The notes below the pieces were generated by a model. It worked only from the letters and a program-made list of their open reading frames with translations. It did not search any database and was not told the DNA's origin. A DNA stretch of 64,000 bases. It comes from Myxococcales bacterium. GTDB taxonomy: Bacteria; Myxococcota_A; Polyangia; Polyangiales; Polyangiaceae. The position numbers were made by a program, and so were the translations under genes. This document shows, in pieces, positions 39,043 to 44,346 of the stretch. How positions within the stretch are numbered: the first letter of the stretch is position 1; the number at the start of each line of letters is the position of its first letter. The stretch covers positions 14,038 to 78,037 of the forward strand of contig CANJCO010000013.1 of the NCBI GenBank assembly GCA_947473045.1. Direction: 5' to 3'.

Positions 39043-39300
39043 ATGTCCGTCAGCATTCGTCTCGCCCGCGCCGGCGCCAAGAAGCGCCCCTTCTACCGCA
39101 TCGTCGTCACCGATAAACGCAGCCCCCGCGGCGGCCGCTTCCTCGAAAACATCGGCACTTTCGATCCGTCAAAAGATCCGGGACTTCTCACCCTCGACGA
39201 AGCACGCCTCGCGTATTGGCAGCAGGTCGGCGCGCAGCCCTCCGAGACCGTCGCGCGCCTGCTCAAGCGCCACGCGAAGCCTGTCGCCGAGAAGGTCTGA
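39043..39300 (+). CDS. rpsP: 30S ribosomal protein S16
   Basis: MSVSIRLARAGAKKRPFYRIVVTDKRSPRGGRF.E.IGTFDP. Confidence 0.95.
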   Translation: MSVSIRLARAGAKKRPFYRIVVTDKRSPRGGRFLENIGTFDPSKDPGLLTLDEARLAYWQQVGAQPSETVARLLKRHAKPVAEKV

Positions 39301-39349
39301 TTGCTGCGTGGCTCCGTCAAGGAGCCCGCTTTGCTGAAAGTACTGGCCT

Positions 39350-39586
39350 ATGGCGCTCACTGATTTGATTCGCACCATCGCGACTGAGCTCGTCGATCAC
39401 CCCGAAAAAGTTGAGGTTCGCGAGGTCGCGGGCGAGAACAACACGGTTGTCGAGCTGCGTGTCGCGAAAGAAGACATCGGCAAGGTTATCGGCAAAGATG
39501 GCCGCACGGCTCAGTCGATGCGCACCATTTTGTCTGCCGTTTCGACCAAGCTCGGCCGTCGCGCGCATCTCGACATTCTCGACTGA
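39350..39586 (+). CDS. KH-domain RNA-binding protein (UPF0109/YlqC family)
   Basis: VAKEDIGKVIGKDGRTAQSMRTIL (GXXG KH motif). Conserved position between rpsP and rimM. Confidence 0.85.
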   Translation: MALTDLIRTIATELVDHPEKVEVREVAGENNTVVELRVAKEDIGKVIGKDGRTAQSMRTILSAVSTKLGRRAHLDILD

Positions 39587-39589
39587 CGC

Positions 39590-40123
39590 ATGCTCGGTCC
39601 TGAAGACTGGGTGCCGCTCGCTGTGGTCGCGCGGCCGCATGGCGTTCGCGGCGAGCTCCGGCTCAAGCTCTACAACGAAGATAGCAATCTTCTGCTGACG
39701 CAGGAAGAAGTGCTCGTCAAGCTGGCGGACGGCGAGTCGCATGAGGTGTCGATTGACACAGCTCGGCGTGCCAACGAGGCCATCTTGCTGAAGCTGTTTT
39801 CCGTCGACGATCGCGATCGCGCCGAAGAGCTGCGCGGAGCGGAAATTTGCCTCAAAAGAGGCGCTTTCCCGGCGCTCGGCGACGGCGAGTTCTACGCCTG
39901 CGACATTCAGGGCGCGCGCGCAGAGATGCTCGACGGCACGCTCGTCGGCACGGTGCGCGACATGATCGAGTATCCCGCCGCCACGGTCCTCGTAGTCGAG
40001 GGCGACATGGGCGTGATTGAGCTTCCGCTCACCGATGCCTACGTCAAGCAAGTCGACGCCGCGGCCAGCCTCGTCTCGGTCGTCAGCATCGAAGGGCTCG
40101 AGCCTTCCAGGTCGCGCGCCTGA
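39590..40123 (+). CDS. rimM: 16S rRNA processing protein RimM
   Basis: VARPHGVRGELRLKLY and a PRC-barrel C-terminus. Conserved position. Confidence 0.85.
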   Translation: MLGPEDWVPLAVVARPHGVRGELRLKLYNEDSNLLLTQEEVLVKLADGESHEVSIDTARRANEAILLKLFSVDDRDRAEELRGAEICLKRGAFPALGDGEFYACDIQGARAEMLDGTLVGTVRDMIEYPAATVLVVEGDMGVIELPLTDAYVKQVDAAASLVSVVSIEGLEPSRSRA

Positions 40124-40125
40124 CG

Positions 40126-40836
40126 ATGCGCGTCGACGTCGTCACGCTCTTTCCGGAGCTCTTCGGCGCCTTCCTGACTACGAGCTTCGTTGGGCGTGGC
40201 ATCGCGGGAGGACAGCTTTCGGTGCGCCTGCGATCGCCCCGCGATTTCGGTCTGGGCAAGCACAAAAGCGTGGACGACTCGCCCTACGGCGGCGGCAGCG
40301 GCATGGTCATGCGCGTCGATGTGCTTGTAGCCTGCATGGAATCGCTCGATGCCGATGCTCCCGATGGTGTGAAGGCGCGCCGCGTTCTGCTCACGCCTCA
40401 GGGGGCGCCGCTGGTGCAGGGGCGCGCGCGCGACCTGTCGGAACAGGCTGCGATCATGTTGATTTGTGGTCGGTACGAGGGCTTCGACGAGCGCGTCCGC
40501 GCCCATGTCGATGAAGAGCTCTCGCTTGGCGATTTTGTCATGACCGGCGGCGAAGTCGCGGCGATGGCGGTGATCGAGTCGACCGTGCGCCTGCTGCCTG
40601 GCGTGCTCGGCAACGAGGCCTCGACCGAAGAAGAGTCGCACGCTCCGGACACTGGGCTCCTCGAGTATCCGCACTACACGCGCCCGGCCGAGTTTCGCGG
40701 AGCCGCGGTGCCTGCCGTGCTCTCGGGCGGCAACCACGCTGGCATCGCTGCGTGGCGACGCGCGCAGCAGCACGAGCGCACGCGGGTGAGGCGCCCTGAT
40801 TTATGGGCAAAGCGCGCAGGCAGAGGCGAACCATGA
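40126..40836 (+). CDS. trmD: tRNA (guanine37-N1)-methyltransferase
   Basis: VVTLFPELF, VDDSPYGGGSGMVM, ICGRYEGFDERV, SLGDFVMTGGE. Confidence 0.9.
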   Translation: MRVDVVTLFPELFGAFLTTSFVGRGIAGGQLSVRLRSPRDFGLGKHKSVDDSPYGGGSGMVMRVDVLVACMESLDADAPDGVKARRVLLTPQGAPLVQGRARDLSEQAAIMLICGRYEGFDERVRAHVDEELSLGDFVMTGGEVAAMAVIESTVRLLPGVLGNEASTEEESHAPDTGLLEYPHYTRPAEFRGAAVPAVLSGGNHAGIAAWRRAQQHERTRVRRPDLWAKRAGRGEP

Positions 40837-41387
40837 CCCGCAGAGTTGCCATCGCGCTGGTGCACTATCCGGTGCTCGACGGACAAAACAGCGTTGTCAC
40901 GAGCGCGATTACCAATCTCGACGTGCACGATCTCGCCCGCAGCGCGCGCACCTACGGCTGCAGCGACTATTTTCTGGTGCACCCCATCGAAGCGCAGCGC
41001 ACGCTCGTAGGTCGCATCACCGAGCACTGGACGACCGGCAGCTCGTCGATGCGCATTCCGGCGCGCAAGCACGCCCTCGCGCTGGCGAGGCCTGTGCCCT
41101 CGCTTGACGACGCGTTCGCCGCGATGGGCGGGCGCGAAGCGATCGAAGTGTGGAGCACGGCTGCGCGAATGGCTGACGGCGTGATCACGTTCGCGCAGGG
41201 CAAAACGCGCATGAGCGATGACCGGCCGCTGCTCATTTTGTTCGGCACGGCGTGGGGCCTCGCAGATTCGGCGCTCGCGACGTGCGATGCGCGGCTCGAA
41301 CCGATCGGCGCCCGTGAGCCGAGTGGCTACAACCACCTCAGCGTCCGCTCCGCGTGCGCGATCACGCTCGATCGCCTCCTCGGCTGA
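40833..41387 (+). CDS. SPOUT-like RNA methyltransferase family protein (Methyltrn_RNA_4-like)
   Basis: ALVHYPVLDGQNSVVTSAITNLDVHDLARSARTYG matches my recollection of this family, which often follows trmD. ATGA overlap with the trmD stop. Confidence 0.6.
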   Translation: MTRRVAIALVHYPVLDGQNSVVTSAITNLDVHDLARSARTYGCSDYFLVHPIEAQRTLVGRITEHWTTGSSSMRIPARKHALALARPVPSLDDAFAAMGGREAIEVWSTAARMADGVITFAQGKTRMSDDRPLLILFGTAWGLADSALATCDARLEPIGAREPSGYNHLSVRSACAITLDRLLG

Positions 41388-41453
41388 GCGGCGCTAAGCC
41401 CGCTCGATGAGCGGCGGCTCGAAGGTCAGCCCGCCGGGCTTTCGGGCCTGGGC
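41386..41453. repeat. Direct repeat copy A (68 bp, 63/68 identical to 43682..43749); decayed copy of the last 19 codons plus stop of the TrmN6-like gene
   Basis: Manual alignment. The minus strand reads AQARKPGGLTFEPPLIERA-stop, versus AQAGKPGGLAFEAPLIERA-stop in the intact gene. Confidence 0.85.
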
Positions 41454-43681
41454 GCTTTAGCGTGGCACCTGGGCGCGCTGTCTTCTACCGTCTGTTGTGT
41501 TGCTCATTTTCGGACAAAGCAGCCGGCGTTGGTGCGTCGTGCGCGCAGTCTGATGTTGCCACGTCGGATCGGTGATGCGCCAGAGAAGCAATGCAGTTGT
41601 CGGTGGCGAGCCGCCGGCCATTCTAGTGAACTGCGACCTCTGCACGCTCTCCTACCAAAACTACCATCAGTCGGCGATCTGGCCGCTCGACCCCTGGTAC
41701 GAGATCCTCGCCCGGGGCGCGACGGATCGTCGCACGCTGTTCATGAAGGCGATCCACCAAAACGTGGCAGCCTTTCCAGCCCGTGGTCCCGGCGCTCTCT
41801 ACGGCGGTCCCGCGGGGATCGCGGGCTTGGTGGCGTCGAACCTCACGCTCGACCCTGTCGTCACAAACTACGCGCAGATCCGGCCCCGCGATCCCGCGTG
41901 GAACGCAGATGGCGCCGTGTTTCTGGGGATGAAAGCGGCCGACTACATCGTCGACCCGATTCGCCACGTATCCGTCGCACATCACAACGGCGATTGGGAG
42001 GCCGGCTTTCCGCACGGGCCGAACCCCACGGTGACACCCGTGCACGACTACGGCTCCGGCTCCGACGAGCTCATCGCCTTCGAGGGCGGCACGGGGAGCT
42101 TCCAAGGTAGCCAGGCGGCCTGGAGCCTCATGGGGTTCGTGCTCAAGCGAACGAACGCGGACGGCACGTGGACCGCTCACATCGTGTTTCGAGGCAGCCG
42201 CAGCGGAAACGCGATTCGCGCCGTGCTGAAGAGCGGCAACGGGCTCCTCAACTCTCCCGAGGGCAACGCCGACTGGATCACCGATCTGGCGACTGGCCAC
42301 AAGCAAGACACGTACGTAGGCGGAAAGGCCGCCGTCGGCTTCGTAGACGCGCTGAAGCGCTGCTGGGGAACGCTCAGACGCGCCCTGCTCACCTTGGACG
42401 GGAAGTATGGAGCTCCCAATGGGATTCACGTGGCCGGCCACAGTCTGGGCGCCGCTCTGGCTGCGCTTTGTTGCGCGTCGATCGCGCAAAACGTCGTTGG
42501 CGCACCCGGTCACAATCTGCGGCAGGTGATGCCGGCGTGGCCGTGGAATCGCGTTCAAGGCTTCTTCTACGCCGTGCCGCCGGTCGGCTCGGAGGACTTC
42601 TGCGCCAGGATCAACCGTGACCTGGCAGGGCGCCTGATCGCGCCATATGTCGCGGACGACATGGTGGTCGAATGTTCGAAGTCGGTGAGCGTGTTCCAGA
42701 CTTCGAAAGCGGGCTTCGCCGGATGGTTCGGAGCCAAGACGACGAACGGAGGCAACACGGGCTACACCGTCGGAGCTCTCGACAGGTTGCCCAGGCCGCA
42801 AGGCGCCGACAAGGGCGAAAACTCGCACGAGCTGTACCTGATACGCGCATCCATCATCGACAAGTACTGCGCGTCGCGCACGATGGCAGTAGCCCCGCGC
42901 ATCACGAGGGCGACCTGCTGGGCGATGTTCGCGACGTTCGCGGACATGCTCGACGGCCGCGCCGTCTCTCTCGTGCGCGGTGAGCCGGCGACGATGATCA
43001 CGCCCGCCAATTTGCGCGCGACGCTCGTGAACTCAGGGTTCGATCGGCACTTCACGATTTTCTTGCAGGCCTTGCAGGGGGTCGTCTCGAACCTCGACAG
43101 CTATCGGGCGGGCGGTGTTATGGGGCGCTCGAAGGCTCGAGGGATGGCTCGACCCGAGCTGCTCGCGCTGGCCGCCGAGCGCGTCGGCGTCGCGCTGGCG
43201 ATGTGCGACAACGTCGACAGCGACGCGACGCAGGTCATTTGCGACACGGTCGCCACGCAGGTGGCCGCGCTCACGGGGTTCTCCGTGCAGACCACGCTCC
43301 GGGGCCGTCCCAAGGCTGCGGCGGAGGGGGGCCTCGCGCTGGAGGCCGACGCGCTGCTCGGACAGGACTTCAACAGCCGCATCGGTCTCGGCCTCATTCT
43401 GCGCTCCCTCCAGCGCAAGCCGGGCACCGCGGTGAACAACTACGCACAGTTCCCCGAGCTCGCAGCGTGCTTGCGCGTGAACCTGGGCGACGTCGAGAAG
43501 TGGCAGAAGCAGCAGGCGGCGCGCAGGGCCCAGCTCGGCGAGTAGTCGCTCGACTTCGCGCGTCCGGCGGCGCGGCCGACTGCCATCTGCGGCAAGCCTC
43601 CCGACGTGCCCCTGCCGGCTGAACGAGGAGCCGTCCTCGGCGCAACGCTCGACTTCGAGGGTGCGCCTCGGAGCATCGGCG
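41454..43681. mobile_element. Candidate inserted segment (about 2.2 kb, single lipase gene, no integrase/transposase) bounded by the 68-bp direct repeats
   Basis: The flanking direct repeats duplicate a gene's 3' end, as in att-site-type integration. No recombinase gene lies inside, so this may be a remnant or a recombination product. Confidence 0.4.
41572..43545 (+). CDS. Class 3 lipase-like alpha/beta hydrolase with a large uncharacterised C-terminal region; no signal peptide
   Basis: Nucleophile elbow HVAGHSLGAALA (GHSLG at 42436-42450). Candidate Asp (YVADDMVV) and His (GENSHELYLI) follow in Ser-Asp-His order. GTG 41572 / ATG 41575 start. Confidence 0.75.
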   Translation: MMRQRSNAVVGGEPPAILVNCDLCTLSYQNYHQSAIWPLDPWYEILARGATDRRTLFMKAIHQNVAAFPARGPGALYGGPAGIAGLVASNLTLDPVVTNYAQIRPRDPAWNADGAVFLGMKAADYIVDPIRHVSVAHHNGDWEAGFPHGPNPTVTPVHDYGSGSDELIAFEGGTGSFQGSQAAWSLMGFVLKRTNADGTWTAHIVFRGSRSGNAIRAVLKSGNGLLNSPEGNADWITDLATGHKQDTYVGGKAAVGFVDALKRCWGTLRRALLTLDGKYGAPNGIHVAGHSLGAALAALCCASIAQNVVGAPGHNLRQVMPAWPWNRVQGFFYAVPPVGSEDFCARINRDLAGRLIAPYVADDMVVECSKSVSVFQTSKAGFAGWFGAKTTNGGNTGYTVGALDRLPRPQGADKGENSHELYLIRASIIDKYCASRTMAVAPRITRATCWAMFATFADMLDGRAVSLVRGEPATMITPANLRATLVNSGFDRHFTIFLQALQGVVSNLDSYRAGGVMGRSKARGMARPELLALAAERVGVALAMCDNVDSDATQVICDTVATQVAALTGFSVQTTLRGRPKAAAEGGLALEADALLGQDFNSRIGLGLILRSLQRKPGTAVNNYAQFPELAACLRVNLGDVEKWQKQQAARRAQLGE

Positions 43682-43749
43682 GATCGGCGCTAGGCCCGCT
43701 CGATGAGCGGCGCCTCGAAGGCCAGCCCGCCGGGCTTTCCGGCCTGGGC
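43682..43749. repeat. Direct repeat copy B (functional 3' end of the TrmN6-like gene plus 8 nt past its stop)
   Basis: See copy A. Overlaps CDS 43690..44346. Confidence 0.85.
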
Positions 43750-44346
43750 CTCCACGAGCACCACGCGCGCGCGCGACGAAGTTGTAGCATGCACGCATCT
43801 GGCGCGCTTCGGCTCGAGTCCGGCGGCGCGCAGCTGGGCGAGCAGGGTCGCAAAATCGTTTGCAGGATACACGAAACATGCCCGCCCGCGCCTGCCGAGC
43901 AGCTCCCGCGCGGCGCGCACGAACGGGCCGACTTCGCCCATGCGCGCGTCGCGCTTCAATGCGGCGGGAGCGCGTCCGGAGCCCGGCTTGAAATAGGGCG
44001 GGTTGCACACGACCAGCGACGCGGAGCCTTTGTGCTCCTGCGACAGGGCGCTCACGTCGACCGAAAGCACGCGCGCGCGCGAGCCGAGGTCATTGCGCTC
44101 CACGTTTTTTATCGCGAGGTCGGCGTACGCGGCGTCGCGCTCCACGAGCGTCACGCTGGGCGTCTTCGAAAGGGTCGCGAGGAGCAACCCGACCGCGCCG
44201 ACGCCAGCGCCGAGATCGAACGCCGTCCCGCGCGTTCCGCCAGCGAATTCGGCCAGAAATACCGCGTCGACGTTGAAACGGTAGCCTCGTGACGGCTGCT
44301 CGAGAAGCAGAGCGCCCGAGGCCAGTGCGTCGACGCTTGTGGTCAC
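43690..44346 (-). CDS. N6-adenine methyltransferase, tRNA1(Val) m6A37 TrmN6/YfiC-like
   Basis: GYRFNVDAVFLA, SAM motif FDLGAGVGAVGL, catalytic NPPY (VVCNPPYF). GTG 44346 forms a GTGA overlap with the upstream lipoprotein stop. The ORF-track start 44442 would overlap that gene by 100 nt. Confidence 0.7.
   Translation of the reverse strand: MTTSVDALASGALLLEQPSRGYRFNVDAVFLAEFAGGTRGTAFDLGAGVGAVGLLLATLSKTPSVTLVERDAAYADLAIKNVERNDLGSRARVLSVDVSALSQEHKGSASLVVCNPPYFKPGSGRAPAALKRDARMGEVGPFVRAARELLGRRGRACFVYPANDFATLLAQLRAAGLEPKRARCVHATTSSRARVVLVEAQAGKPGGLAFEAPLIERA

Follow-up and report, generated by a model that had tools for sequence, protein, structure and literature searches.

How did one accessory gene come to stand inside a conserved housekeeping neighborhood, bracketed by two copies of the 3' end of one of its neighbors? 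We addressed this question at a locus lying in a 64,000-nt stretch of DNA from a Myxococcales bacterium (hereafter, the 64-kb window). The left neighbor is a SPOUT-type RNA methyltransferase gene, the last gene of the rpsP-KH-rimM-trmD cluster, and the right neighbor is a second methyltransferase gene (MT) on the opposite strand. An earlier note, made from the sequence alone, had described a one-gene segment between direct repeats and had read it as an attL/attR-like footprint of integration. The genes and spacers of the locus are as follows:

40833-41387, plus strand: SPOUT-type RNA methyltransferase gene (PF09936, Pfam 202 bits), with its stop TGA at 41385-41387; also based on a 184-aa gene call in L022 and on synteny in 18 relatives
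41454-41574, plus strand: leader 5' of the lipase gene, relatively AT-rich, with 91% identity to the sister lineage
41575-43545, plus strand: cargo gene encoding a 656-aa class-3 lipase-domain protein (Pfam PF01764; exact gene call on the source contig)
43546-43675, plus strand: trailer from the lipase stop to repeat copy B, in which no homology to the 3' end of the SPOUT gene was detected
43690-44346, minus strand: functional MTS-domain methyltransferase gene (MT), TrmN/TrmN6-like, 218 aa (Pfam PF05175)

The best NCBIfam match of MT is TrmN (NF047853), at 55 bits and below the equivalog cutoff of 350, and its homologs are named tRNA1Val (adenine37-N6)-methyltransferase in the source records. 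At this score, "TrmN-like" is best taken as a label and not as family membership.

A direct repeat carrying the end of the methyltransferase gene

Our repeat search of the window recovered a 74-nt direct repeat with 68 of 74 positions identical (92%); no other direct repeat in the window exceeds 76% identity. The 68-nt repeat previously counted by hand (63/68) is contained within it. The two copies and the gene fragment in the left one are:

41380-41453, unstranded: repeat copy A, made of 8 nt from the end of the SPOUT gene (stop included), then a spacer of 6 nt and the MT 3'-end remnant in its displaced position
43676-43749, unstranded: repeat copy B, in which the SPOUT stop and spacer survive as a decayed remnant (43676-43689) ahead of the stop and last 19 codons of functional MT (assigned in part from a three-way site table)
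41394-41453, minus strand: MT pseudogene fragment, a stop and 19 codons without a start codon, bounded upstream by an in-frame TAA (41457-41459)

Copy B had been identified as the genuine MT 3' end, and this held: it spans the last 19 codons (43693-43749), the MT stop (43690-43692) and a further 14 nt past it. Copy A had been placed from the last two bases of the SPOUT TGA onward; the overlap with the stop stands and the left edge does not, as the match extends 6 nt further left, into the last SPOUT codons. Any extension deeper into the SPOUT 3' end was rejected as not significant relative to genomic controls, and local alignment of the sequences flanking the 74-nt repeat did not exceed these controls on either side (left, p ~0.45; right, p 0.03).

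The repeat is specific to these two positions of the window. Its 28-nt core occurs exactly twice in 64 kb and never in 100 dinucleotide shuffles, and the alignment score is 118, relative to a control maximum of 33. The search for further copies that the earlier note had proposed returned no third copy within the 64-kb window, and no inverted repeats pairing the ends of the insert were found there. The repeat consists of MT coding sequence that is conserved among homologs. A reading as structured RNA, terminator or attC was rejected: folding was no better than in shuffled sequences (z from -0.4 to -1.5), and the repeat presented no Rfam match and no terminator or promoter consensus.

On the minus strand, copy A reads AQARKPGGLTFEPPLIERA followed by a stop; it is what remains of the MT 3' end and cannot be translated. 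It has R and T residues that none of 45 homologs shows, and the remnant differs between sister lineages by 14%, approximately the synonymous rate. The decay of this remnant is neutral, in line with the earlier description of the left repeat as a decaying, drifting duplicate.

Empty sites and other occupants of the junction

The distribution of the insert among relatives indicates a gain rather than an ancestral arrangement. In at least 12 relatives within Polyangiaceae (L003-5, L009-13, L015, L016, L026, L027), the 3' ends of the SPOUT and MT genes abut or overlap, and none of these empty-site relatives carries the lipase gene. The proposal of the earlier note that the two genes were once convergent neighbors, and that relatives should hold empty sites, is borne out by these genomes. 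The locus is a single-gene insertion into a formerly convergent SPOUT/MT junction.

The junction has also received other genes. Across Polyangiaceae, it holds five different lineage-specific gene sets, including the lipase; the four others are unrelated to it and lack flanking repeats. These other occupants (L001-L028) comprise rSAM, kinase, RCC1, lipoprotein-like and unknown genes. We detected no junction duplication around the occupants in L001, L002, L006, L008, L014, L023 and L028, no recombinase- or integrase-bearing occupant among ~25 related loci (L001-L028), and no relative with a junction duplication lacking an insert. The four repeat-free gene sets and the lack of a recombinase-bearing occupant suggest that the junction may simply be permissive.

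Age of the insertion and a later deletion

A sister lineage (contigs L036/L037; ~94% nucleotide identity) carries the same insertion with an MT remnant that is 135 nt long and, in L036, contains frameshifts. This remnant matches the MT side with 80.7% identity over 135 nt (blastn), so the duplicated segment originally measured 135 bp or more. Two further features of the window follow from this comparison:

43676-43806, unstranded: minimum ancestral duplicated segment on the MT side, homologous to the 135-nt sister remnant (blastn and alignments)
41445-41454, unstranded: deletion scar, a 10-nt microhomology (GGCCTGGGCG) that aligns twice to L036 (blastn and alignment)

No homology was detected past this ancestral segment (p 0.13). 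At the scar, 138 nt of the sister sequence (L036 1381-1518) are missing from the window, corresponding to 61 nt more of MT remnant and ~78 nt that originally formed the left end of the insert; in the sister lineage, just 208 nt separate the remnant from the lipase gene. The 74-nt copy of the window was thus shortened by a 138-bp deletion between 10-nt microhomologies, and copy A owes its sharp right edge to a secondary change. The 68/74-bp repeat is therefore not the original att-like unit.

The remnants of the window and of the sister lineage share four states that differ from copy B, which indicates a single insertion event predating the split of the two lineages (dS ~0.2). The insertion is therefore old, fixed and vertically inherited across this split, in line with the earlier suggestion that the event may be old.

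The inserted gene

The insert had been described as holding one gene and no recombinase, and we indeed found a single open reading frame with a Lipase_3 domain only. The match to this domain (PF01764) scores 42.9 bits against a gathering cutoff of 22, and the protein contains GHSLG, a GxSxG nucleophile motif; no NCBIfam, PDB or PADLOC match was found for it. The gene is under purifying selection, with a dN/dS of 0.14 relative to L036: the lipase-like cargo is uncharacterized yet clearly maintained. Its best homolog in the protein search is 59% identical, and its homologs show a patchy distribution, always in other, unrelated genomic contexts. Compositional foreignness was rejected: GC3 (0.834), codon use and tetranucleotide distance (69th percentile) all match the neighboring genes, so the earlier judgment by eye that composition does not differ held up under these measures.

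The leader presents no sigma-70-like promoter consensus. We considered it as a possible remnant of a LysR gene, which lies directly upstream of lipase homologs in L019 and L021, and rejected this candidate (empirical p 0.04-0.49); the closest lipase homologs (L031, L032) have upstream genes other than LysR. The window contains no second lipase copy, no LysR gene and no remnant of the 215-aa lipoprotein-like gene that occupies the junction in L001, L002, L023 and L028.

Evidence on mobility

We found no integrase, transposase or other mobile-element gene in the insert, either in the window or in the sister lineage. For an attP-like copy, the repeat-core pattern yielded no match in viral contigs and two chance matches in metagenome contigs (25-27 nt, in unrelated DNA), and no lipase homolog was found in phage and plasmid collections. 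All seven population contigs that reach the site carry the insert, and none has an empty-site allele. The same cassette, which the earlier note had proposed to look for at other loci, was not found at any. These results suggest a gene gain that lies in the past rather than a mobile element that is still active. The attL/attR-like reading stands in part: integration, by analogy with e14 at icd, would be the most economical structural parallel, but neither a recombinase, inverted ends, an attP-like match nor a phage or plasmid lipase accompanies it.

Origin of the insertion

To our preferred reading we give about an even chance: the locus may be the fossil of one old single-crossover integration, by which a circle with the lipase gene and a replacement MT end entered the chromosome and later decayed to one cargo gene. 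The circular DNA would have carried the lipase gene and a junction copy of at least 135 bp, comprising the last ~39 MT codons, the stop and 14 nt that extend into the SPOUT stop. After one Campbell-type crossover with the chromosome inside this shared segment, the 2.3-kb insert would have been flanked by two direct copies of the segment. MT would have retained a working 3' end (copy B), and the other copy would have been stranded beside SPOUT, where it decays (copy A). Most likely, the circle would have been a site-specific integrative element that supplied a replacement gene end, as do e14 and phage 21 at icd. Loss of its recombination genes would then have reduced it to the cargo gene that selection retains. 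We infer both the circular intermediate and the kind of recombinase. The icd/icdC pair flanking e14 is an example of the gene-end duplication that an integrative element leaves behind (PMC13626634).

Several features argue for integration. The repeat comprises the MT 3' end, the stop and 14 nt, which is what restoration of the target gene requires, and the functional copy adjoins MT with the remnant at the far end. The genes were 6 nt apart before the insertion, so duplication was not needed to keep both intact and reflects the mechanism. At 135 bp or more, the duplicated stretch is far longer than the target duplications made by transposases and falls in the size order of the gene-end duplications of integrative elements. 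The patchy lipase homologs in unrelated contexts also fit this model, and the 138-bp deletion directly documents erosion at the edge of the insert. Against it stand the lack of a mobile-element gene, of a further repeat copy in 64 kb, of a core match beyond chance in viral or metagenome contigs and of a recombinase-bearing occupant among ~25 related loci, the four other gene sets that lack a flanking duplication, as well as the native-like composition of the lipase gene and the absence of its family from phage and plasmid collections.

Alternatively, the insertion might have been duplicative and free of any recombinase, an explanation that we regard as rather unlikely. A break or stalled fork at the junction would have been repaired illegitimately (by end joining, gap filling or template switching), with capture of a foreign 2.3-kb fragment and re-copying of ~135 bp of the target. 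The absence of mobile-element genes and the native-like composition speak for this scenario. The copies were approximately identical when the event happened, and their present difference of only 8% is as compatible with an exact duplication of resident sequence as with a near-identical replacement end. In addition, relatives show at least four other unrelated gene gains at this junction without recombinases, and the microhomology-mediated deletion occurred at the same spot. However, the remaining insertions at the junction show no duplication, a random process does not predict that the block ends 14 nt past the MT stop, and no source paralog above 59% identity emerged from the protein search. 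Bacterial end joining is not known to produce, in a single step, target duplications of >100 bp around foreign DNA, which also counts against this explanation.

We consider it improbable that the locus reflects an undescribed, recombinase-independent mode of gene capture at tail-to-tail junctions in Myxococcota. This could be either break or collision repair in which >100 bp of target is copied again around foreign DNA, or the transfer of a minimal cassette from one related genome to another, with the gene-end repeat alone serving for homologous recombination.

There is only a small chance of two separate events, in which a harmless tandem duplication of the junction came first and the lipase fragment landed between the copies later. 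Tandem duplications are common and a duplicated spacer would offer a neutral landing pad, but the later insertion would have had to hit the boundary of the copies exactly, and the relatives include no insert-free duplication that could represent the intermediate.

It is very unlikely that the module is still mobile, like a CIME, with live attL and attR repeats and a recombinase encoded elsewhere in the genome. The 92% identity of the repeats would fit this explanation. It conflicts with the fixation and vertical inheritance of the insertion across the dS ~0.2 split, with the truncated, neutrally evolving copy A and its frameshifted counterpart in L036, and with the seven occupied population contigs; the module was found at no other locus, and no cognate element was seen at the site in relatives. 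Finally, chance similarity or an assembly artifact, for which nothing speaks besides the high G+C background, is refuted by the shuffles and alignment controls above and by the presence of the arrangement in independent assemblies from several samples and in the 94%-identical sister lineage.

Comparison with known systems

The locus is a well-dated case of a single accessory gene becoming a stable resident of a conserved housekeeping neighborhood. Target duplication, neutral decay and trimming by microhomology deletion can be read as stages from two sister lineages and the empty-site relatives. The SPOUT/MT tail-to-tail junction itself is a recurrent spot of gene gain in Polyangiaceae.

As with transposons and insertion sequences, the target sequence is directly duplicated around the insert, but the duplication spans at least 135 bp instead of the typical 2-15 bp, and there is neither a transposase nor terminal inverted repeats. 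Unlike an integron cassette, the repeat presents no attC-type fold or Rfam match and consists of conserved MT coding sequence. Genomic islets at convergent intergenic spots offer a closer likeness, since this junction also hosts varied lineage-specific gene sets; the flanking duplication, however, accompanies only the lipase insertion. CIMEs, the decayed remnants of ICEs or IMEs that keep attL and attR, similarly lack integration and transfer genes. Repeats are present here, but their att function is only putative, and copy A is truncated and drifts neutrally; no related ICE or IME that uses the site was found in ~25 related loci.

The nearest parallel is e14 or phage 21 at icd of E. coli, which left the icdC pseudogene: there too, the element enters a protein-coding housekeeping gene at its 3' end and supplies a replacement for that end. 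The e14 element is 15 kb long, encodes its own integrase and excisionase and still excises, whereas the present insert measures 2.3 kb, has a single cargo gene, lacks a recombinase and is a fixed feature of two lineages. Of the hallmarks of an integrative element, the locus presents flanking direct repeats with a gene 3' end and an empty target site, and lacks an internal tyrosine or serine recombinase. The locus reveals no new system; it is a clean but ordinary footprint of gene gain.

Structure of the insertion

The window has a G+C content of about 67%; the public genomes closest to it are MAGs that carry the labels Polyangiaceae or Myxococcales. It derives from the 92.5-kb ENA contig ERZ27277814 k141_1859592, and near-identical contigs are present in further samples. 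A repeat search identified a 74-nt direct repeat with 68 identities (copy A, 41380-41453; copy B, 43676-43749), which contains the 68-nt pair with 63 identities reported in the earlier note, and no further direct repeat above 76% identity anywhere in the window. The 28-nt core of the repeat occurs at exactly two sites in the 64 kb (0/100 shuffles). Chance similarity and assembly artefact were both excluded as its source. Between the two copies lies a lipase gene.

Genes at and around the insertion
39043-39300, plus strand, rpsP
39350-39586, plus strand, KH-domain protein
39590-40123, plus strand, rimM
40126-40836, plus strand, trmD
40833-41387, plus strand, SPOUT methyltransferase (PF09936)
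41575-43545, plus strand, Lipase_3-domain protein, 656 aa
43690-44346, minus strand, MTS-domain methyltransferase (MT)

Copy B comprises the MT stop, the last 19 MT codons and 14 nt past the stop. Copy A opens with the final 8 nt of SPOUT and reads AQARKPGGLTFEPPLIERA-stop on the minus strand, where an in-frame TAA (41457-41459) shuts the frame upstream. The rpsP-KH-rimM-trmD cluster (39043-41387) closes with the SPOUT gene, which overlaps trmD by 4 nt, as in 18 of 18 related loci. The 130-nt trailer 3' of the lipase carries an exact 12-nt direct repeat, CGCTCGACTTCG, near both of its ends (43547-43558 and 43646-43657).

The junction in related genomes

Scanning species-representative genomes with the SPOUT protein yielded 18 syntenic loci. 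Using tblastn with all neighbouring proteins, we observed a constant order in which the rpsP-KH-rimM-trmD-SPOUT cluster is followed by an oppositely oriented MT and, after it, by queG and meaB; the lipase was found in none of these loci. SPOUT and MT lie tail to tail in loci L003-L005, L009-L013, L015 and L016, their stop codons overlapping or separated by just a few bases, and their gene calls overlap by 26 nt in L026 and L027. These empty sites confirm the proposal that the insertion entered a convergent gene pair. The window junction is reconstructed as TGA-6 nt-CTA before insertion, so an insertion without duplication could have left both genes intact. It follows that the duplication is a mark of the mechanism and not of selection for intact genes. 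Most Polyangiaceae MT homologues (L003-L016) present a C-terminal extension of 15-20 aa (…GYTPEMQALLARG) that is absent from the window and its closest clade; in the relatives with this extension, the stop codons of MT and SPOUT adjoin or have bases in common.

Gene gain has recurred at this junction. A lipoprotein-like ORF of 215-217 aa occupies it in six loci (L001, 3908-4663; L002, 3247-3894; L023, 6645-7292; L024; L025; L028, 926-1579). This ORF is conserved in the nearest sampled clade, encodes a signal peptide with a Cys, has no Pfam family and overlaps the MT stop by 4 nt at its 3' end. Other occupants are a 475-aa unknown protein (L008), a B12-binding radical-SAM protein (L014) and a 7.8-kb block (L006, 3450-11290) with rSAM-SPASM, RCC1-repeat, PEGA/TPR, Ser/Thr kinase and sigma-54 activator genes. 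The activator is of the FHA-sigma54 type, and the rSAM-SPASM gene adjoins a pair of small Cys-rich paralogues, which form a 214-nt repeat at 78% identity; the first part of the block looks like a RiPP-type cluster. We found no recombinase among these occupants and no duplicated junction around them.

Age and decay of the insertion

A cluster look-up with the SPOUT protein returned variants 97-98% identical, whose contigs (L036 and L037) represent a sister lineage with about 94% DNA identity to the window and the order trmD-SPOUT-remnant-lipase. Their MT remnant 3' of SPOUT is longer: L036 1306-1440 aligns with window 43676-43806 (80.7% over 135 nt, two frame-breaking indels), with no homology past this stretch (p 0.13). 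The ancestral duplication was thus at least 135 bp long, made up of some 39 MT codons with their stop, the 6-nt spacer and 8 nt of SPOUT. A stretch of 138 nt (L036 1381-1518) is missing from the window, and window 41445-41454 (GGCCTGGGCG) aligns with both of its ends (GGCCTGGGCG and GGCCGGGGCG), which shows that a microhomology-mediated deletion took place in the window lineage. This deletion took away 61 nt of the MT remnant together with some 78 nt from what was originally the left end of the insert, making the sharp right boundary of copy A secondary. The left repeat is a real duplicate of the MT 3' end, as first described, but its right edge is not original.

Nei-Gojobori estimates, window versus L036
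trmD: dS 0.24, dN/dS 0.05
SPOUT: dS 0.15, dN/dS 0.085
Lipase, first 234 codons: dS 0.21, dN/dS 0.14

The MT remnant differs between the window and L036 at 8 of 57 sites (14%), approximately the synonymous rate, and is neutral. The R and T residues of window copy A occur in 0 of 45 MT homologues, the P/A site is polymorphic within this family, and P0246, an MT variant 99% identical to that of the window, has G and A like copy B. Copy A is indeed a drifting duplicate, as had been claimed. T189S and E212A alone distinguish the window MT from P0246; the two substitutions lie among the last 30 residues, within the duplicated segment (43690-43806, last ~39 codons).

We compared window copy A, L036 copy A and copy B over the 74 nt. 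Copy B stands alone at four sites (two of them in its useless SPOUT-stop remnant), window copy A at one and L036 copy A at six, and all three differ at one. This pattern indicates that the two remnants are orthologous, and a single insertion preceded the split of the two lineages, probably not by long, with copies A and B identical or nearly so at that time. Seven contigs from the window's own population extend to the site, and every one carries the insert. The insertion is old, as the earlier note had allowed, and fixed.

The lipase gene

The lipase is under purifying selection in both the window and L036 lineages. Its best homologue is only 59% identical, and its homologues (L019, L020, L021, L031 and L032) lie in unrelated, equally G+C-rich contexts. 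The family is patchily distributed (matches in Polyangiaceae, Desulfonema, Methylobacter and Melainabacteria) and was not found in phage and plasmid collections; the lipase had no match in NCBIfam, PDB sequences or PADLOC. By GC3 (0.834), codon usage and tetranucleotide profile the gene cannot be told apart from its neighbours, in agreement with the absence of deviation judged by eye. A LysR-family regulator lies directly upstream of the homologues, on the same strand, in L019 (6898-9833), where its stop overlaps the lipase ATG, and in L021 (6788-9893); the window lipase arrived without it. Two contigs from two other samples, each 99.9% identical to the window (L034, SAMN08331105; L035, GCA_947480445.1), end at most 12 nt apart inside the lipase (43350-43362), which suggests a common assembly-graph branch and possibly strain variation in the C-terminal part.

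Origin of the duplication

From this observed anatomy and history we infer the origin of the duplication. When foreign DNA acquires flanking direct repeats of at least 135 bp in one step, the classical cause is integration, by a single (Campbell) crossover, of a circle that bears the segment, and integrative elements targeting the 3' ends of protein genes carry such a gene-end segment. The block duplicated here corresponds almost exactly to the MT 3' end, the stop and a few bases. Because of this Campbell signature and the match to the gene end, we favor the interpretation that the insertion represents a decayed integrative element. A circle with the lipase and the junction segment would have undergone a single crossover in that segment, leaving a direct repeat on both sides. 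We give Campbell-type integration an even chance, and consider an integrase more likely than RecA to have mediated it.

The attL/attR-like footprint proposed earlier agrees with the repeat, the empty sites and the MT 3' end. However, we found no recombinase in the window insert or the sister lineage, no inverted ends in the repeat search, no attP-like copy of the repeat in viral or metagenome contigs and no integrase-bearing occupant of the junction in about 25 loci, all of which count against a decayed element. That relatives gained genes here without a recombinase also weighs against it. Alternatively, duplicative repair or template switching without a recombinase, the main rival, is possible but less likely; the microhomology deletion at the same spot speaks for it. 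A tandem duplication followed by a separate insertion is unlikely, and so is a still-active cassette, the insertion being old and fixed. The first observation was correct and its interpretation is partly supported.

Comparison with known systems

Repeat and domain searches of the insert ruled out a transposon; an integron cassette or a structured RNA repeat was also ruled out. The standard example of 3'-end targeting is e14, flanked by icd and the C-terminal pseudogene icdC (PMC13626634). Although neither the recombinase nor the cognate element expected of an e14-type element or a CIME was found, the structure of the insertion resembles a CIME and would work in like manner to e14 at icd.
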